Source: Candidatus Spongiisociaceae bacterium
Lineage (GTDB): Bacteria; Actinomycetota; Acidimicrobiia; Spongiisociales; Spongiisociaceae
Length of the DNA stretch: 64,000 nt
Direction: 5' to 3'
NCBI GenBank assembly: GCA_965219685.1
Contig: CBDCOH010000002.1
Coordinates: forward strand, 1,056,001-1,120,000
Shown here in pieces: positions 1 to 37,082 of the stretch (position 1 is the first letter of the stretch; every line of letters begins with the position of its first letter). The translations under genes and the position numbers were made by a program. The notes beneath the pieces are model-generated. The model worked only from the letters and a program-made list of their open reading frames with translations, did no database searches and had not been told where the DNA came from.

Positions 1-844
1 GCCCCGAACAGGTCTGGCAGGCACCGTAAGGGCTGTTGAATGAAAAGGAGCGCGGCTCTAGTTCATCGAACGACAGGCCGCAGTCGGTACAGGCCAGGTG
101 CTGGCTGAAGGTCAGTTCGTCACCGCCGATGATGTCCACCACCGCGATGCCCCCGGTGAGGTTCAGGGCGGTCTCCAGCGACTCGGTGAGCCTGCGCAGT
201 CCTCCCCGTCCAGCGATCAACCGGTCCACTACCACCTCGATCGTGTGGGTGTAGTAGCGGTCGAGCCTGATCCGCTCCCCCAGGTACATGATCTCCCCGT
301 CCACCCGTGCCCGGCTGAAACCCTGCCGAGACAGGTCTTTGAACAGTTCCTCGTACTCCCCCTTCCGTCCCCTGACGATGGGAGCGAGAACCTGGAATCG
401 GGTTCCCTCTTCGAGGTCCGAGATCTGGTCGACGATCTGCTGGGGGGTCTGGCGCGCCACCATGCGTCCGCACTCCGGGCAGTGGGGCCGGCCGATCCGC
501 GCATACAGCAGGCGGAGGTAGTCGTGTATCTCGGTGATGGTGCCGACTGTCGATCTCGGATTGCGGCTGGCGGTCTTCTGGTCGATCGAGATGGCGGGCG
601 AGAGGCCTTCTATGAAGTCCACATCGGGCTTGTCCATCTGGCCTAGGAATTGGCGTGCGTATGCCGACAGGCTCTCGACGTAGCGCCGCTGTCCCTCGGC
701 GTAGATCGTGTCGAACGCCAGGCTGGACTTGCCCGAGCCCGACAGCCCCGTGAACACGATCAACTGATCGCGGGGCAACTCGATCGAGATGTCCTGGAGG
801 TTGTGCTCGCGCGCTCCGCGAACGATCAGCTTGTCTCTCGTCAT
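1..844 (-). CDS. uvrA: Excinuclease ABC subunit A, 5' part (runs off the window's left edge)
   Basis: Not in the ORF track. Manual translation from ATG 844 gives [90 protein letters not shown], the canonical UvrA N-terminus. An in-frame alternative ATG lies at 889. Confidence 0.97.
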
Positions 845-903
845 CGTGCCCGGGTGGTTTGCTGGGGGAAGCGGTGGTGGCGACGCCATGGTAGTGGCTG
901 GTG

Positions 904-1043
904 GAATGGTGAATGGTGAATGGTGAATGGTGAATGGTGAATGGTGAATGGTGAATGGTGAATGGTGAATGGTGAATGGTGAATGGTGAATGGTGAATGG
1001 TGAATGGTGAATGGTGAATGGTGAATGGTGAATGGTGAATGGT
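904..1043. repeat. Perfect heptamer tandem array (GAATGGT)20
   Basis: Counted directly: 140 bp in the divergent intergenic region between uvrA and the large helicase gene. Confidence 0.98.
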
Positions 1044-1114
1044 ACCAACTCTTGACGGTACTCGACTACCGAGCTAGGACCCGGCTGCGACGAGCCAGGT
1101 GGTCGCCGTTCACC

Positions 1115-1158
1115 GGCAACTGGCAACTGGCTGGCTGACCGCTGCTCACTGGAACACT
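1115..1158 (+). repeat. Degenerate heptamer-like run GGCAACT-GGCAACT-GGCTGGCT-GACCGCT-GCTCACT
   Basis: Seen directly, abutting the TAGAAT hexamer (1159-1164) upstream of the 1174 start. Confidence 0.55.
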
Positions 1159-1173
1159 TAGAATCGCCGGTCT

Positions 1174-4100
1174 GTGAACGGTTCGGATCAGTATGTGGTC
1201 TTCGACTTGGAGACGAACGCGGACCGGCCCGAGGCGGCCGAGCACGAAATCATCCAGATCGGCGCGGTTGCGGCGTCGGCAGCCGGTGAGTTGGATTCGT
1301 TCGAGAGTTTGGTCCGGTCGCAGCGGAGGCTGCCGCCGAGAATCACCGAGCTGACCGGATTGGAGTACGGGGACCTTGCCGGTGCACCCTCCCTCGAGCA
1401 GGTACTGAGCAGCTTCTTCGGCTGGGTGGGTGATCGGCCGTTGATCGCTCACAACGGTTTCGGCTACGACTTCGAGGTCCTCGACGCGGCCGCGGCTCGG
1501 ATCGGGCTCGCTCCACCGGCCGGGCCTCGTCTCGACACCCTGGAGTTGGCGCACCTCGTGTTTCCCAGGGCCGGATCGGCGATCCCGGGCGTGGACGGCA
1601 GCACCCCGCCGGCGGGTAGGAGCCTCGATCAGCTGGCTCACCTGTACGGGGTTGCGGGCCGGGACCGCCATGACGCATTGAACGACTCGCGGATGACCCG
1701 GTCGGTCATGGTCGGACTGCTGGAGGACATGGACCGGGCCACGCCGGCGCGGCGCCTGCAGCGATGGATCCTCCGAGTGGCGGGTCATCCGTGGTCCCGG
1801 TTCCTGGCTCCGGAAGCGGAGCCGCCCTCTCTCGCAGAGGTGGTTCCCCCAGCGGCCGCGGGCGCCCGCTCGCCGCCCACGGGGCGTTTCGACATCGGGA
1901 CGGTGGTCCGGTCCTTTCAAGCGGGTGGCCGCCTGATGACCGGCGCCAGGACGCCTCGCCCCCAGCAGGCCGAGATGGCCGGACTGGTGGCAAGAGCCTT
2001 GTCGAGTTCCGGCTCGCGCTGGATGATCGAGGCGCCGACCGGTACCGGCAAGACTCTCGCCTACCTGGTCCCCGCGATCGAGATGGCAAGAGCGTCCGGC
2101 CGTACGTCGGTTATCACCCCGCACTCCCGGGTGCTGCAGGACCAGATCCTGGCAACCTTGGAGGAACTGAAGGAGGAGATCGGTCCGTTCTCGACGGTGG
2201 TGCTGAAGGGACGGCAGAACTACGTCAGTCTCAAGGCGCTCGATGCCGAACTCGCCGGCCTGGAAGGTGAGTCGCGGCGGAATCCCGCCCTGAGCCCCGT
2301 TGCGCTATCCCTGGCCATGATTAGCGGTTGGGTGTCGGAAACCCCGACCGGTGATTGGGCCGACCTGCGAACGGCAGCGGTTGCTGCCCGGTTGCGTCCC
2401 CTGCGGTTCTTCCGGTGGAAGCTCCGGGTCAACACCCGCCCGGGCCTGATTCTGACCCCCCTCGACGCACTCGACTTCCATCGCCGGGCTTTGCAGGCCG
2501 TCAAGACGGCCCACGTGGCGGTCCTGAACCATGCGCTGCTGGCCACGGGTCCGGAATTGGAGGAGAACCGCTTCAACCTCGTGATTGACGAGGCCCACGG
2601 CCTCGAGGACTCGGCCACCGCGGCGGCCACGCTGGAGGTGAGTAGAGAACAACTCGAGCAGTTGTGCGACGCCTTATGGGACGGCCGGGTCCGGCGCGGT
2701 CTCGCGGTGAGGCTGGCGACCGCCACCGGAGCGGGACTCAGGGACCCGAGGATCGACAGGATCCGGACCGCGACGGCCGCAGCCCGGGTTGCCGTCGAGC
2801 GCTTCTCGAACCCCCTCACCGACTACCTGCGTGACCGGACCGGGGTGTCACGGGAACAGGCGGTCCGTTACGGCGCCGCGTACCGCATCCGCCGGGGAGT
2901 GGACACCCGCCACCCCGCATACCGGGAGGTCCTCAGGACGGGTGGCGCCCTGAGGAACGCGTTGCGCCAGGTGGTCGGAGCCCTCGATGGGATCACGGTG
3001 CCGGAGAAGCCGGCCGGCCGCTACCGCCGCGACGCGTTGGAGGACGAGATATACCGTCTCGTCCGCGAAGTCCGGGATGCGGACCGCCTCGTCGACTCGG
3101 TTCTGCGGGCTGCCGGCCAGCTGCGTCTCTTCGACGACCACCTGGCCGAGCATGAGTTGGTCGAGTGGATCAACGTAGCCGAGGTCTCCTTCGAGGCCAC
3201 CGAGGGCGGAGTTCCTGAGGAGGATCTCGATAGCGCTGCGGCGAAGATCCCGCCGGGACGATGGCGGTGGGCGCTGCGGCGCGCTCCCCTCTCGGTGGCG
3301 GGGCTGCTGGCTGATCTTTGGGATCGGGCTCACGCGGTGTTGCTGACCTCCGCCACCCTGCGTTCCGGTGACGACTTCGGCTACCTGGTCGGTCGGCTCG
3401 GACTCGGCAGTGCGGAGTCCAGGGTGATCGGCACACCCTTCGAGAGGCTCTCCGAGCAGCACCTGCTTCTGCTGACCGATTACCTGCCGGCTCCCCGCGG
3501 TGGGCTGATGGACCGCTTCACGGAGATTGAAGCCACGGAGATCCCTCGACTCTTCGTTGCAGCAGATGGCGGGGGGATGGCTCTGATGACGGCGCGCAAC
3601 CGGCTCGACTACGTTCGGGACCACTCCCGTCCCCACCTGGCCCCGCTGGGAATCGAGTTGCTGGCGCAGGGAGACGCATCGTCGCCGGTTCTGGTCGAGC
3701 GGATGCGAGACAACCAGCCGGCATGCCTCCTGGGACTCAGATCCTTCTGGGAGGGCGTTGACATTCCGGGGAACGCCCTCAGGCTGCTGCTGATCGAGAA
3801 GGTGCCGTTCGACTCGATCGGCGATCCTGTCGTGAGCGCCCGGACGGAGTTTCTCGAGCTGGCGGGGCGGGATCCCTTCGCCGAATACATGGTGCCGAGG
3901 GCGGCCATCGCCTTCGCACAGGGTGTGGGACGGCTAATCCGTAGGGAGGACGATCGGGGAGCGACCGTTGTGCTCGACAACCGGCTGCGCCGCCCGGTTC
4001 CCTACCGCGACGTTCTGCTCCGCAGCCTCTCCGGGCCACCTGCCCGGAGGGACATCGATACTCCCGGCGAGGCGTACGCGGCGATTACTGACCATCTGGA

Positions 4101-6294
4101 CATCGCCCTCGACTCGGATCGGTGGGAACGGATCGGGCGGATCCCGGGTGTCGAGACGCTGTCCCGTGCTGCACTCGAGGTGGATGGGGACGACCTTTCC
4201 GACGGGGAAGCCATCGACCGGGTCTTGGAGACAGCCCGGGAGTGGCTGGGATTCGACAGGTGGCGCCCCGGCCAGCGGAGGATCATGATCCGTTTCATGC
4301 GCGGCGAGGACACGGTGGCTGTTCTCCCGACCGGCTCCGGGAAGTCCGTGACCTACCAGATACCCGCCCTGGTGTCGCCGGGCGTGACGTTGGTGGTGTC
4401 GCCGCTCATCGCGCTGATGCGGGACCAGGTCGACAACCTGCGCGCCCGTGGGGTCACCGAAGCCGCCGCCATATATGCGGGGGTAGGTCAGGCGGAGCAG
4501 GAGGCGATCCTGCGGGCGGCGGCGGCCGGACACATCAAGCTGCTGTACGTGAGTCCGGAGCGGCTCTGGTCTCCGGTGTTCCGGTCGTGGCTGGCGGGTG
4601 TCGACGTGGCCCGCGTGGCGGTGGACGAGGCCCACTGCATATCGATGTGGGGTCACTCCTTCCGGCCGGAGTACGCGATGATCCCGAGGGCCATCGCCGA
4701 AGTGACCGGCGGCCGCTTGCCCGTTCTCGCCGTGACCGCGACCGCTACCTCCGAGGTGCTGGAGGACATCCGTGAGTTGCTGGGAGTGTCGGCGGAGCCG
4801 CTGGTCGGTTCGGTCAACCGACCGGAAATCCGCTACTACGTGGAGCGGTGTAGCAACAGGCGGGACCGGGAGCTCCGGGTGGCGCAGGTGGTGGAGGCCT
4901 TTCGCCGGAAGAGCGCCATCGTCTACGTCCCGAGGGTCAGGGACACCACCCTCCTGTCGGGCTTGTTGAGGACCTTCGGTCATCGGGTCCGGCCATACAA
5001 CGGCGAGATGGAGTACCCGGAGCGCCAGCACACCGAGGACGCCTTCCGCCACGGAGAGATCGACGTGGTGGTGGCCACCAAGGCATTCGGCCTCGGCATA
5101 GACAAGCCTGACATCGCCCTCATCGTGCATCTGGAGATGCCTGCCTCGATCGAGGAGTACGTCCAGGAGACGGGACGGGTGGCTCGTGGCGCAGCCGATG
5201 GCAGCGGGCCCGAGACCGGAGCGGCCGTGCTGCTGGTGACCCCGAGGGATTGCGGCATCCACGACTTCTTCGTGAAGTCGTCGGTTCCCAGACTCGACGA
5301 CATCCGGCGCGAATGGAACAGGCTCGACGTCGGGATGAACTACATCGATCCCGGGAGCGAGGCATCCCCGGCCGGGGACGCGGGCGGCGACCGGGATCAG
5401 GCCAGGGCGCTGGCCCTCCACTACCTTGACCAGGTGGGAGCGCTGCGGCGGCATCGCGACTTCGTCCTCCGCGGGCGGATATCCGTCCTGGAGGATACGG
5501 AGGGACGGATGAGCGATCTCCGGCTCCGGCGGCCGGATCTGGCGCGCCGAGCCGAGTCGATCGTCGGCGATAAGGTGGCGGGTTCCCGCGACTACCACGG
5601 CCTCCGGGCGAGCGAGAGGCTCGACATGGACCCTCCCGAGATCGAAGCTGTCCTGTTCGAACTCCAGAAGAGAAGTGTCTGCGGTTTCACCGGCTGGAGG
5701 TACGGGTGGAGTTTCGAGCGTCGGGCCGGAATCGAACCCGACTGGCACCTTCTGCGGAGCCTGATCCGCCAGCGGCGCGAGACGATGGAGGAGAGGGCTC
5801 GCCGCGCACGCCGGCTGGCACATGGTTTCCGGGGGTGCCGCCGCCGCGAGATGTTGCGTTACCTGGGCGAGCCTGATCCGGCCTTCGGGGTGTGTGGCGG
5901 GTGCGATGCCTGCACGCCTGACCTGCCCCGCCCCTGGGAGCGGATCGATATCCGGGCCTCCGACGTGCGGGACGCGATCCAGGAGACCGCGCTGGTCACG
6001 ATCCTGCTGCTAGTCGACGATGTGGAGCGGGGCCGGTTCTCCCGGTCGAATCTGGTCCGGGCGTTGCGGGGCGATGGCGGAGGGCCTCACCCGCTCCCCC
6101 GCCAACTCCTGCTGCACGGTTGCTTCGATCGCCTGGGGATGCTTGAACGGCAACAGGTGGATGAGTTGGTGGACGACGCGATCCGCGACTGCCGCATCGA
6201 AGAGGTCGAGGTGGCATACGACGGTCGCGTCTACACGAGCCTGTGCTTGACCGCCGACGGCCGGGAGCTCCTCAGGGGCCGCTACGCGGGTTAG
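1174..6294 (+). CDS. Multidomain protein: DEDDh 3'-5' exonuclease + DinG/YoaA-type SF2 helicase + RecQ-type SF2 helicase with Zn module and RQC-like C-terminus
   Basis: Exonuclease motifs [21 protein letters not shown]. DinG motifs [48 protein letters not shown]. RecQ motifs [63 protein letters not shown]...CGGCDAC. Confidence 0.92.
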
Positions 6295-6387
6295 GAGGGG
6301 GCTGGTCTCGGTTGGAGGCCGTATAGGCTTCTAACCTGGCCTTTTGACTGCGGAGAGAGGGTGTCTGTTAGGTAGTATGCCCCGCTG

Positions 6388-8202
6388 ATGGCGTTCCTGA
6401 TACCCGAGAACATACCGAGCCTGTCCACGGTGCCGGAGAGGCTTAGTCAGGTGGCGAGGGCGTTGAGGGATTTCACGCCCCACGACACGACTGTCTGGCT
6501 CAGGGACCAGGACGCGGGTGCCCCGTACCTGGAACTGCTCGATCCCGGGGCGGGGATCCTCGTAGTCCAGGCCCCGCGTATCAGGACCGTGACGCGCAGG
6601 CGCCGCCCCGGGTGGCGCACGTTCGACGAGGAGGAAGTCGTCCGGATACGGGACGACGTGGCTGAGCGTGCCGAGTACCTACGCAAGGGCGTCGACAGGG
6701 CTCTGGTCAGGTCACTGCCGGTGGAGCCGGTCCTGGCAGTCCCGGACCACGACGAGGTGACGGTTCCCGCCGTGGGTCCGAAGGATGCCAAGTTGCCCAT
6801 CCTGGCCCGTTCCGATCTGGCAGAGAGCAGTCTGCAGCCCGCGATCCGCCGGATTCTGGGGGCCACGGACCGCCCGGGGCTGAGTGCGCAGGAGGAGAGC
6901 CGGGCCCGGGCGGTGATGAACCCGGAGGTGGTCATCTCCCCGGTCGTCGTCGGATCCGGAGCCGAGGGGTTCGAGACCTTGCCTCTCTTCCAGGATCCCG
7001 ACATCGCGCCCGAGGATCTGATCCGGGTGATGGATCGCCAGCAGGAGCGGGTCTCGGAGCACCTCGGTTGGGGATACCGGATCCTGCGAGGAGTGGCGGG
7101 AAGCGGCAAGACGCTGGTGCTCACCCACCGGGTACGCCACCTGCACCGGTTCTTTCCCAACTACCGGATCCTGCTGCTCTGCTACAACCGCCTGCTCGCC
7201 AATGCGCTGCAGTTGATGGTTGATCCGAGCGAGCGAATAACGGTCACCAACATCGACCGGCTCGCCTACGATCTGGCCGGAACCGGGCGGCGCCCGTCCG
7301 ACTTCGGGGAGTTGCGGAGGTTGGCAGCGGAGAAGGCGGCCCGGCTCCCGGAGTCCCGGCGGTACGACGTGGTGCTGGTCGACGAGGCGCAGGATTTCGA
7401 TCACCCCGGCTTGGACCTTGCGTACTCGATGCTGAAACCGTCGCGCCGCGATCTGCGGGCCTCCGGACAGGGGATACGGTCCTACCGCGCCGGCCACTTC
7501 GTCATGGCGCTGGACAGTGCCCAGAACGTGTACCGGAGGAGCATGACGTGGAACCCTCCGGGGGTGACCGGCAGGGGACGCACCACGGTTTTCCGGCGCA
7601 ACTACCGCAACACGCGGGAGATACTGTCGTTGGCGTGGAGACTCCTCGAGGGAGCGCCAGCATGGTCGTCGGAGTCCCGCGCCTCGGAAGACGTGCGCGG
7701 GAGGATCTCGCCGGAGGCCGCCCCGCGGAGCGGCCCGATGCCCAAGTTGCTCGACTGTCCGCACCTACGGGGCGAGGCCGGAGCAATCGCGGACGAGGTC
7801 GAGCGCCTCCTCGACGACGGAGTGGACGTTGGGGAGATCGCCGTCATGTACGGCCATCACGATCTCGAGAACCGGCTGGAGCAGGAGTTCAGGCGGCGGC
7901 ACCTTCCCTACTTCCACGTCCAGGAGAGGGACAAGAGAGGTTACAAACCCAACCGCGACAAGGCTGTCAGCGTACGGGACAAGGTTCGGGTGTCCACCCT
8001 CCAGGGTCTCAAGGGTCTCGAGTTCAGCCGGGTCCTGATCGGAGGCGTCAACCAGGTCTACGTTCGTGACGTTCCCGAAGATGAGCAGGAGACCGCGGTC
8101 AAGCGATTGCTCTACGTGGCTATGACCAGGGCGATGGACGAACTCGTGATCACTGTCTCGGGTGACGGCGCGATGGGAAGCGCTCTGCGAGGAGTGCGCT
8201 GA
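6388..8202 (+). CDS. NERD-like (degenerate) N-terminal domain + UvrD/Rep-like SF1 helicase
   Basis: MDRQQE...GVAGSGKT Walker A, VDEAQDF Walker B, DSAQNVY, RNYRNT, KGLEF, LYVAMTRA. The N-terminal LLDPGAGILVVQ segment resembles the NERD core. Confidence 0.88.
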   Translation: MAFLIPENIPSLSTVPERLSQVARALRDFTPHDTTVWLRDQDAGAPYLELLDPGAGILVVQAPRIRTVTRRRRPGWRTFDEEEVVRIRDDVAERAEYLRKGVDRALVRSLPVEPVLAVPDHDEVTVPAVGPKDAKLPILARSDLAESSLQPAIRRILGATDRPGLSAQEESRARAVMNPEVVISPVVVGSGAEGFETLPLFQDPDIAPEDLIRVMDRQQERVSEHLGWGYRILRGVAGSGKTLVLTHRVRHLHRFFPNYRILLLCYNRLLANALQLMVDPSERITVTNIDRLAYDLAGTGRRPSDFGELRRLAAEKAARLPESRRYDVVLVDEAQDFDHPGLDLAYSMLKPSRRDLRASGQGIRSYRAGHFVMALDSAQNVYRRSMTWNPPGVTGRGRTTVFRRNYRNTREILSLAWRLLEGAPAWSSESRASEDVRGRISPEAAPRSGPMPKLLDCPHLRGEAGAIADEVERLLDDGVDVGEIAVMYGHHDLENRLEQEFRRRHLPYFHVQERDKRGYKPNRDKAVSVRDKVRVSTLQGLKGLEFSRVLIGGVNQVYVRDVPEDEQETAVKRLLYVAMTRAMDELVITVSGDGAMGSALRGVR

Positions 8203-33317: not shown

Positions 33318-33339
33318 TCCCCCAGGCTAGTCAATCTAC

Positions 33340-33353
33340 CGAACACATGTTCG
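33340..33353. promoter_or_regulatory. LexA (SOS) box CGAACACATGTTCG upstream of dnaE2
   Basis: Matches the actinobacterial/Firmicutes CGAAC-N4-GTTCG consensus; lies upstream of a TAGCCT-N6-ATG leaderless-type start. Confidence 0.93.
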
Positions 33354-33436
33354 ATCAATCCAAAGCCTTCTGTAGTGGGTATGGGGGAGGATCCAAGCCC
33401 GTAGCCCTCACCGTAAAGGCCTTCATTGGGCTAATG

Positions 33437-37002: not shown

Positions 37003-37066
37003 TGTCTACCTGTTTCTCCTGGTGGCGCCTACTCCCCCGCCATCCGACAGGACCGCACAGTATAGA

Positions 37067-37080
37067 CGAACATATGTTCG
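37067..37080. promoter_or_regulatory. LexA (SOS) box CGAACATATGTTCG upstream of imuA
   Basis: Perfect palindrome, 2 nt from the TATACT -10 (37059-37064, minus strand). Confidence 0.95.
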
Positions 37081-37082
37081 GT

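Follow-up and report, generated by a model that had tools for sequence, protein, structure and literature searches.

An exonuclease-DinG-RecQ fusion and its SF1 helicase partner form a conserved gene pair in Acidimicrobiia

Two adjacent genes encode one exonuclease and three helicase motors

The window analyzed here is a stretch of 64,000 nucleotides (nt) from a Candidatus Spongiisociaceae bacterium (contig CBDCOH010000002.1 of assembly GCA_965219685.1, positions 1,056,001 to 1,120,000), and our subject is a pair of genes on its plus strand. The first gene, ORF A (positions 1174 to 6294), begins with a GTG codon at the position of the ATG starts of its orthologs and encodes a protein of 1,706 amino acids (aa), P0001, in which a 3'-5' exonuclease, a DinG-type superfamily 2 (SF2) helicase, and a RecQ helicase are fused in one chain. 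The second gene, ORF B (6388 to 8202), begins with ATG and encodes the 604-aa partner P0002, which consists of an inactivated NERD domain and a UvrD-like superfamily 1 (SF1) helicase. An earlier note on this DNA had described two co-oriented genes carrying an exonuclease and three helicase motors. This architecture is real: open reading frame (ORF) calls place both genes on the plus strand, and Pfam matches, NCBIfam matches, and motifs agree on their content. What is new about the pair is the conserved way in which it combines helicase and nuclease families that are themselves known.

Domain organization of the fusion protein

The DEDDh 3'-5' exonuclease domain (positions 1195 to 1698, plus strand; residues 8 to 175) matches Pfam RNase_T with an E value of 2.7e-22 and has the catalytic residues D11, E13, D99, H166, and D171. 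Residues 4 to 493 match a solved structure named '3'-5' exonuclease DinG' (8zef). The DinG/XPD-type SF2 helicase module follows (1951 to 4053, plus strand; residues ~260 to 960), with the Walker A motif APTGTGKT and DEAH as motif II. It contains the DinG-type pair of Pfam domains (ResIII/DEAD, 261 to 335, and Helicase_C_2, 793 to 951), is covered by the PADLOC model typeIV_DinG over residues 260 to 960, and matches solved structures of Escherichia coli DinG over residues 715 to 940. The only cysteines within residues 260 to 960 are C498 and C851. There are none between motifs Ia and II (~300 to 470), and an iron-sulfur (Fe-S) cluster of the E. coli DinG/XPD type was not found. This absence of a cysteine cluster indicates that the DinG part is of the Fe-S-less Exo-DinG kind.

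The same combination of an N-terminal DEDD(h) exonuclease with an Fe-S-less DinG/XPD module is found in the Exo-DinG proteins of Bacillota (Bacillus subtilis and Staphylococcus aureus DinG; TIGR01407, PRK08074, PDB 8zef), and Exo-DinG-like representatives of 890 to 990 aa match residues 6 to 950 of P0001 at 33 to 37% identity. The Exo-DinG catalytic set is present in P0001 (Exo-then-DinG order, DEDDh residues, APTGTGKT, and DEAH) and is kept in 22 copies. However, P0001 differs from the Bacillota proteins in its C-terminal RecQ part and its dedicated SF1 partner gene, and it scores below the NCBIfam cutoffs. The models for DinG, YoaA, and Exo-DinG (dinG_rel) all match strongly but fall short, with 331.9 versus 547.7 bits for TIGR01407 and 356 versus 789 for PRK08074, the curated Exo-DinG models.

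The RecQ helicase core (4210 to 5343, plus strand; residues ~1013 to 1390) has the Walker A motif PTGSGKS and the RecQ-type pair of Pfam domains (DEAD, 1032 to 1197, and Helicase_C, 1241 to 1338). It scores above the RecQ-family cutoff (TIGR00614, recQ_fam; 282.4 versus 219.8 bits over residues 1023 to 1339) and matches the RecQ structures 4tmu (E 6e-74) and 1oyw (E 4e-69) as well as those of human RECQ1, BLM, and WRN (E ~5e-42 for WRN). The E. coli-type RecQ equivalog TIGR01389 gave 354 bits against a cutoff of 640 and matched profile positions 5 to 363 of 591 only. With bacterial RecQ (TIGR00614/TIGR01389; 1oyw, 4tmu), P0001 shares the core, the aromatic-rich motif DEAHC..WGH.FRPEY, a four-cysteine zinc (Zn) module, and an RQC-like winged helix. 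In contrast to bacterial RecQ, the RecQ part forms the C-terminal third of a 1,706-aa chain, no HRDC domain was detected by Pfam, and an insert of ~120 to 180 residues precedes the Zn module.

This family-specific insert lies between RecQ lobe 2 and the Zn module (5371 to 5733, plus strand; residues ~1400 to 1520 in P0001) and has no Pfam match. An AlphaFold2 (AF2) model of residues 1340 to 1706, with a predicted local distance difference test (pLDDT) value of 80, shows it as two helix/beta-hairpin units. The insert may have a winged-helix-like fold, a tentative reading of this model. The Zn-binding module, displaced by the insert, is followed by the C-terminal RQC-like winged helix (together 5740 to 6291, plus strand). 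It matches Pfam RecQ_Zn_bind at residues 1523 to 1581 (27.8 bits versus a cutoff of 25), and its four cysteines, C1555, C1574, C1577, and C1580, are invariant in the alignments. In Foldseek searches the same AF2 model matched BLM, WRN, and RecQ cores and the RQC domains of WRN and BLM, with target template-modeling scores of 0.67 to 0.75.

All 22 full-length copies from the window's own family preserve the DEDDh residues, the Walker A/DEAH pairs of both SF2 motors, and the four Zn cysteines, apart from one DEAN in place of DEAH and one PTGFGKS. One fusion of 1,214 aa that is cut or split (L080) was excluded from the full-length counts.

The partner protein and its degenerate NERD domain

The compact SF1 helicase core of P0002 spans ~400 aa (7000 to 8175, plus strand; residues ~205 to 596), with the Walker A motif GVAGSGKT, the Walker B motif VLVDEAQD, and the motif VI sequence VAMTRA in invariant alignment columns. 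Pfam matches are to UvrD_C, AAA_19, and UvrD-helicase, and Foldseek ranked the SLFN11 helicase, UvrD, PcrA, and Rep highest. At the equivalog level, the models for pcrA, uvrD, and rep match the last 60 to 70 residues only, with 35 to 51 bits against cutoffs above 900. P0002 is UvrD-like and is not UvrD.

The earlier note had called the N-terminal region a dead NERD domain, and the claim is supported by homology. Pfam NERD (PF08378) has no match on residues 1 to 204 even at E<=1. Collinear homologs of ~620 aa from Bacillaceae and Paenibacillus (25 to 28% identity) bear Pfam NERD at residues 15 to 107, and hhalign aligned the partner family with these proteins over the full length (probability 100, E 5e-68, 568 columns), placing their catalytic D46/E60/K62 opposite Y47/Q61/P63 of P0002. 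The PD-(D/E)xK-like domain so located occupies residues ~14 to 118 (6427 to 6741, plus strand). AF2 gave this region an alpha-beta-beta-beta-alpha-beta order with pLDDT values of ~55 to 80. Y47 is nearly invariant in the two partner alignments, A1 and A3. P63 never varies in A1 and is almost constant in A3, where the partner from G609, a genome of another family in the same class, has V; the middle position varies among E, Q, S, A, and D. Since this pattern is family-wide, the NERD domain appears degenerate and catalytically dead across the partner family and not just in the window's genome. As far as its sequence tells, the NERD domain of P0002 is a degenerate, inactive member of its family. 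The partner alignment has 21 rows rather than 23 because the ORF caller missed the partner in two loci (L065 and L077); for L084, where the partner is split (185 plus 445 aa), it holds the first ORF only.

The Bacillaceae and Paenibacillus NERD-UvrD proteins (PADLOC C3a187) share with P0002 a collinear length of ~600 aa, the N-terminal motif MA..(V/I)PE.I, and the compact SF1 core. However, they keep D...E.K and are recognized by Pfam NERD, whereas the window's partner family has Y/(E,Q,S,A,D)/P and no NERD match, and their loci have no Exo-DinG-RecQ gene within up to 10 kb. The extreme N terminus of P0002 (6388 to 6420), MAFLxPENIPS, is conserved out to the Bacillaceae proteins (MAxTVPETIxS; loci L105 to L143), which suggests a functional N-terminal motif.

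The state of the NERD domain bears on whether the pair is a break resection machine like RecBCD, AddAB, or AdnAB. The earlier note had suggested a bipolar, RecBCD-like end processor, an idea built on the textbook polarities of the DinG (5'-3') and RecQ (3'-5') families. In such a machine DinG and either RecQ or the SF1 partner (3'-5') would each travel along one of the two strands, and the exonuclease would digest the 3' strand. Like those systems, the pair has several motors, nominally of opposite polarity, and a nuclease activity in one operon; its two genes are strictly co-inherited (see below), and the Foldseek matches of the partner include RecD of RecBCD and Dna2, among many SF1 helicases. 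However, the pair has no RecB-family nuclease, with which known resection machines make 3' tails, and its motors are two of SF2 (DinG and RecQ) and one of SF1. Because the only live nuclease is a 3'-5' DEDDh exonuclease and the sole PD-(D/E)xK-like domain is dead, a resection machine is less likely, and we consider it improbable.

Distribution of the fusion

Twenty of the 29 species genomes in the window's own family carry the fusion, in 23 copies that form two old clades, A (60 to 92% identity) and B (51 to 56%). A protein search with the fusion gave 442 relatives. Among the 120 best, most have the same Pfam set and a length of 1,650 to 1,790 aa, down to 48% identity; they are named 'RecQ family ATP-dependent DNA helicase' in the databases, and one is from Candidatus Poriferisocius (Acidimicrobiia). 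We also searched 1.84 billion cluster representatives with residues 1 to 1200 of P0001. Among the best 150, which were examined, 72 are at least 1,500 aa long, and 71 of these 72 have a DinG-type Walker A motif ahead of a RecQ-type DEAH[CS]; Exo-DinG proteins of ~900 to 990 aa rank below the long fusions. The ESM Atlas has three fusion clusters, of 347, 72, and 56 members. A metagenome scan for distant fusions gave, among the matches listed (mostly ordinary RecQ), one distant full-length fusion, L206, at 30% identity.

The search for homologs with the full RNase_T, DinG, and RecQ architecture that the earlier note had asked for thus yielded many, and with 23 copies in 20 of 29 genomes a one-off or chimeric fusion is rejected. 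The fusion family is real, fairly large, and taxonomically patchy. A general actinobacterial feature is likewise rejected for the genomes searched (0 of 400 in a phylum sample, as a floor, and 3 of 201 in a class sample; see below). A phage-borne origin was rejected as well: the pair was absent from viral contigs, which gave only DinG-alone relatives (31 loci, matching query residues ~232 to 989) and three weak partner relatives.

Some copies are possibly damaged. One in-frame TAG was seen in each of the G182 partner (L066) and the G204 fusion (L077). Two more copies are split: the G210 partner (L084; 185 plus 445 aa) and the second fusion of G206 (L080; 516 plus 1,225 aa). Assembly errors or decay could account for all of these.

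Fusion and partner are linked within and beyond the family

A partner homolog lies directly downstream of the fusion, on the same strand, in all 23 family copies. None of the nine family genomes without the fusion has a close partner, so that presence and absence are perfectly correlated across the 29 genomes; weaker SF1 matches elsewhere (31 to 33% identity, ORFs of 771 to 950 aa) are different helicases. The distance between the two genes is 24 to 194 nt in clade A. In clade B the partner start abuts or overlaps the fusion stop, with a gap of 0 to 1 nt in seven of the nine loci listed. The fusion and partner trees have the same main groups, and clade A tracks genera g1 and g2. Conserved linkage between the two genes, on which the earlier proposal depended, is therefore strict in the family, and it recurs outside it. 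In G609, 40 nt separate a 1,785-aa fusion (~30 to 34% identical) from a downstream partner of 592 aa with 37% identity to P0002 over the full length (E 1e-102).

A scan with the partner alignment, limited to one genome per species, found 80 loci, eight of them with the fusion directly upstream. These eight are all from Acidimicrobiia, Acidimicrobiales, or Candidatus Poriferisodalis metagenome-assembled genomes (MAGs); two had already been counted and six are new. The other 72 loci, from Bacillaceae, Bradyrhizobium, Gallionella, and others (25 to 35% identity), have no fusion within up to 10 kb.

These 72 loci speak for a reading in which the two genes are mere neighbors with independent functions and promoters of their own. 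So do the -10-like hexamer that each gene possesses (see below) and the distant fusions that lack a partner directly downstream: in G187 the next gene encodes a 2,624-aa SNF2 protein, and in L206 no plus-strand ORF was found in the 0.9 kb remaining downstream. However, the linkage holds in 23 of 23 copies across ~50% sequence divergence and changing contexts, co-occurrence is perfect in 29 genomes, stop and start codons abut in clade B, and the pair is met again at ~30 to 37% identity in G609. Independent function is already unlikely on this evidence, and we rate it as very improbable. Because the two genes are kept together in related genomes, we regard the pair as a real DNA-processing module. 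Complex prediction with residues 1340 to 1706 of P0001 and P0002, both given as alignments, returned an ipSAE score of 0.00 in two runs without controls and counts neither way.

Two other arrangements of related domains were seen. One comprises giant RecQ-UvrD proteins of 1,756 to 2,000 aa, with a RecQ-like SF2 core at residues ~290 to 640 and a UvrD-type SF1 helicase at ~1100 to 1620 in one chain. Their genes (L088:4936-10224, minus strand; L089:7093-12519, L087:5712-10982, and L085:2733-8735, plus strand) occur in the window's family, G167, and G187, and a weak exonuclease-like N terminus aligns to residues 90 to 235 of P0001. We rejected these giants as a fused form of the pair, since what they share with P0001 and P0002 is limited to the RecQ core (37%) and to weak SF1 motifs (25%, E 7e-5). 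Their presence in the same genomes may point to a wider family of RecQ-centered helicase assemblies in Acidimicrobiia. The other arrangement is in an Acidimicrobiales MAG (L100:7968-11800, plus strand), where a gene for a DEAD/Helicase_C SF2 helicase of 681 aa and the gene after it, for a partner relative of 599 aa, overlap by 13 nt. This may be a minimal pair of an SF2 helicase and a NERD-like SF1 helicase, without exonuclease or DinG.

Promoter-like hexamers precede both genes

As the earlier note had stated, a TAGWAT hexamer lies exactly 9 nt ahead of each start, and we confirmed TAGAAT at 1159 to 1164 before the GTG of the fusion gene and TAGTAT at 6373 to 6378 before the ATG of the partner gene, both on the plus strand. 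The former is part of the promoter-like site CTGACC-18-TAGAAT (1135 to 1164, plus strand), the one sigma-70-like site found between positions 900 and 8500, where 0.4 was expected. In clade A, where the ATG starts of the fusion genes line up with the GTG in the window, 12 of 13 loci have a TANNNT hexamer 8 to 9 nt ahead of the fusion; for the partner, such a hexamer is found 7 to 10 nt before the partner start in all 21 family loci with a partner ORF called. In clade B the partner's hexamer falls inside the 3' end of the fusion coding sequence. The same spacing recurs across orthologous loci, indicating that the hexamers go beyond chance. We infer from their sequence and position that TAGAAT would be a -10 element giving a leaderless or near-leaderless fusion mRNA and TAGTAT an internal promoter for a leaderless partner mRNA.

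Genomic context and the case for defense

In the window, the pair is flanked upstream by the N-terminal part of a divergent uvrA gene (2 to 1126, minus strand; Pfam UvrA_inter), which is truncated by the window edge and lies outside the module. Downstream, Pfam identified genes for a glyoxalase, an FGGY kinase, and a luciferase-like monooxygenase, then uvrB, rpsA, and polA. The position beside uvrA, pointed out in the earlier note, did not prove general: it was found in 4 of 23 loci only, and the uvrA-side position is common only to the window and its three closest loci (92, 71, and 71% identity). The other clade-A loci, in both genera, share metabolic flanks (clusters c2-c2-c14-c6) unlike the window's, and the clade-B loci differ again. 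The survey of flanking genes covered 129 of ~230 ORFs, each standing for one cluster of proteins of at least 110 aa. The commonest Pfam families among these 129 clusters are ABC permeases, Fic, amidohydrolases, short-chain dehydrogenases/reductases, and regulators.

The earlier note had also suggested that the pair could be used in defense or repair. As a two-gene anti-phage or anti-plasmid system, the helicases would survey the DNA ends or intermediates of the invader, the DEDDh exonuclease would degrade them, and the dead-NERD/SF1 protein would sense or regulate. A helicase beside a nuclease-bearing protein is likewise found in Gabija (GajA/GajB) and Hachiman (HamA/HamB), where the helicase is UvrD-like or of SF2, and GajB models match the C-terminal motifs of the partner (residues 529 to 592 only, E down to 4e-14). 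However, the pair has no OLD/TOPRIM nuclease (no GajA-type match on P0001), no DUF1837 nuclease HamA, and no PADLOC system-level match. The latter agrees with the earlier note, whose author did not recognize the architecture as a named system. The PADLOC matches are at the domain level only, to generic helicase and exonuclease models (DpdF, type IV DinG, PsyrT, and 'C3a187 NERD+UvrD'). The DpdF, PsyrT, and type IV DinG models cover only the RecQ core (1013 to 1386) or the DinG module (260 to 960), and a nonexhaustive Pfam scan of seven neighbors revealed no cas, dpd, or psyrA gene within 20 kb.

Several lines of evidence speak for defense. The candidate model 'C3a187 NERD+UvrD' matches the partner with an E value of 4e-40. 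Beyond the family the occurrence is sporadic and deeply diverged, and within it three genomes have two diverged pairs, some g2 species have lost the pair, and the genomic position varies: clade A has three contexts or more, and clade B several. A few flanking genes match PADLOC models (mad2/3/8, SoFic, MTase_II, PD-Lambda-3_B, single others, and PDC-M55C beside the G206 copy), although these matches were traced to their loci for 10 proteins only. Locus DNA is present in sponge metagenome runs, and sponge symbionts are rich in defense genes. Two gene neighborhoods are further points in its favor. In G187 (L085/L086, G187:C36:196000-225000), the genes encode a 2,000-aa RecQ-UvrD protein, a 1,016-aa ResIII helicase, an 887-aa N6/N4 DNA methylase, two small products of 184 and 144 aa, a 1,759-aa Exo-DinG-RecQ fusion, and the SNF2 protein mentioned above; this operon-like series looks like an undescribed restriction- or DISARM-like island. 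In an Obscuribacterales MAG (L099:2591-12478, plus strand), genes for an EH_Signature protein (454 aa), an SNF2 protein (1,160 aa), an AAA_11/AAA_12 SF1 helicase (789 aa), and a partner relative (825 aa) stand in a row. This row is a Zorya-like set with extra helicases, the ZorC/ZorD assignment of its genes being our presumption.

In contrast to these points, no named PADLOC system was matched, the flank tally is mainly metabolism and transport, and of 10 large flank proteins run one by one, only 2 match PADLOC at E<=1e-8. The 25 commonest flank families include no integrase or transposase, no viral contig has the pair, clade A tracks the genus tree with synteny kept, and genomes with the fusion have their sole DinG-type module in it, with a stand-alone DinG occurring where the fusion is absent. 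As judged from flank tallies, proximity to defense genes amounts to a few PADLOC matches and the defense-like island of G187. The defense claim was not confirmed; the mostly metabolic flanks, the largely vertical inheritance, and the fusion as the only DinG-type module point at least as much toward genome maintenance. Defense nevertheless stays a serious rival because of the patchy distribution, the duplicated pairs, the losses, the G187 island, and the Zorya-like neighborhood of the partner relative; we regard it as possible but unlikely.

A role in genome maintenance is tentatively favored

The reading we favor, with slightly less than even confidence, is that the pair is a conserved, chromosomally inherited nucleic-acid-processing module of Acidimicrobiia that acts in genome maintenance at stalled or blocked forks. 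It is preferred because of the strict and ancient linkage, the intact motifs in four enzymatic modules, the largely vertical inheritance, and the complementarity with stand-alone DinG. The window's genome, which is 96.7% complete, has no RecQ-family match above the cutoff and no Helicase_C_2 match other than the fusion. A recQ-like stretch split over two frames lies outside the window (G000:C2:3972589-3973288, minus strand; family positions 11 to 85 and 86 to 237 of 470) and is probably a decayed ordinary recQ, in which case the fusion would provide the sole intact RecQ here. Each of the 20 fusion genomes has its Helicase_C_2 match within the fusion, with one weak extra match in G206 (a 927-aa frame, E 5e-8). 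Four family genomes from the three genera without the fusion (G213 to G216) each have a stand-alone DinG of 669 to 698 aa.

A number of observations weigh against a role in genome maintenance. Four g2 genomes that are 83 to 96% complete (G217, G220, G224, and G227) have neither the fusion nor a DinG-type match, indicating that the function of the fusion is dispensable, and G222 (97% complete) has only a weak DinG-type match. Most fusion genomes also have an ordinary RecQ of ~700 aa. Three genomes (G212, G206, and G225) carry both clades, that is, two diverged copies of the whole pair, a state not usually seen with housekeeping genes. Beyond the family, fusions occur only sporadically: the class sample of 201 genomes has full-length copies in three (the window's own, one relative, and G187 at 34%), the order of G187 has it in 2 of 121 genomes, and none was found in the phylum sample of 400 other genomes at E<=1e-85, a stricter first look that gives a floor. 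The membership of the G187 fusion in the island described above and the preservation of uvrA/uvrB adjacency in only 4 of 23 family loci belong here as well. Finally, no LexA box (up to three mismatches) was found in the intergenic region (1127 to 1173); matches were found elsewhere in the window. Control of the pair by LexA and the SOS response was rejected, as this region has no box-like site at that threshold. Elsewhere in the window, at 33339 to 33354 and 37066 to 37081, are two near-perfect LexA-box-like palindromes, CCGAACACATGTTCGA (one mismatch) and ACGAACATATGTTCGG (two mismatches).

Should genome maintenance be the role, the parts would divide the work as follows. Each gene would be transcribed from its own -10 element as a leaderless mRNA. 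The RecQ part would unwind forks, D-loops, or G-quadruplexes in the 3'-5' direction on the other strand from the Exo-DinG part, and the dead NERD domain of the partner may serve as a docking module for DNA or protein. The SF1 motor would clear proteins or hybrids, by analogy with PcrA/UvrD. The Exo-DinG part would load on 3' ends or the displaced strand and trim single-stranded DNA (ssDNA) or R-loop RNA, by analogy with the Exo-DinG of B. subtilis. The latter, the closest characterized Exo-DinG, is reported to process ssDNA and R-loops mainly through 3'-5' exo(ribo)nuclease activity (PMC12525004).

The architecture of the pair can also be set beside human proteins. WRN likewise has a DnaQ-like 3'-5' exonuclease and RecQ in one polypeptide, and in FANCJ-BLM an XPD/DinG-type 5'-3' helicase cooperates with a RecQ helicase; the overall logic of the pair resembles that of WRN and of the FANCJ-BLM pairing. 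However, WRN has no DinG module, and human FANCJ and BLM are separate proteins, so that the likeness is one of architecture only and does not imply orthology. The pair might represent a previously undescribed class, with a 3'-5' exonuclease and the opposite-polarity helicases DinG and RecQ in one chain, an obligate SF1 partner, and a NERD domain turned to docking or sensing, either as a bacterial 'WRN + FANCJ-BLM' in a single polypeptide, which would clear R-loops, G4 DNA, and stalled forks, or as a new anti-phage system, which would recognize the replication intermediates of an invader. This we put forward as a rather doubtful proposition.

Implications

A literature search, which covered sources other than subscription journals and supplementary files, found nothing on the Exo-DinG-RecQ fusion or the pair. 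Public databases hold the family unrecognized, under generic labels: the fusion is mostly a 'RecQ family ATP-dependent DNA helicase' and the partner an 'AAA family ATPase' or '3'-5' exonuclease'. As a rule, exonuclease, DinG, RecQ, and UvrD-like activities reside in different proteins, which come together at stalled forks, R-loops, and recombination intermediates. In this pair three of them are hard-wired in one chain and the fourth is tied to it, an arrangement kept through ~50% divergence in the family and at ~30 to 37% identity beyond. If defense were the true role, the pair would be a new helicase-exonuclease architecture with a nuclease domain recycled as a noncatalytic module. If the parts act together, the pair would be a natural experiment on how helicases of opposite polarity cooperate with a 3'-5' exonuclease, a question that is open for human WRN, BLM, and FANCJ, and it would offer a compact system for biochemistry and cryo-electron microscopy.

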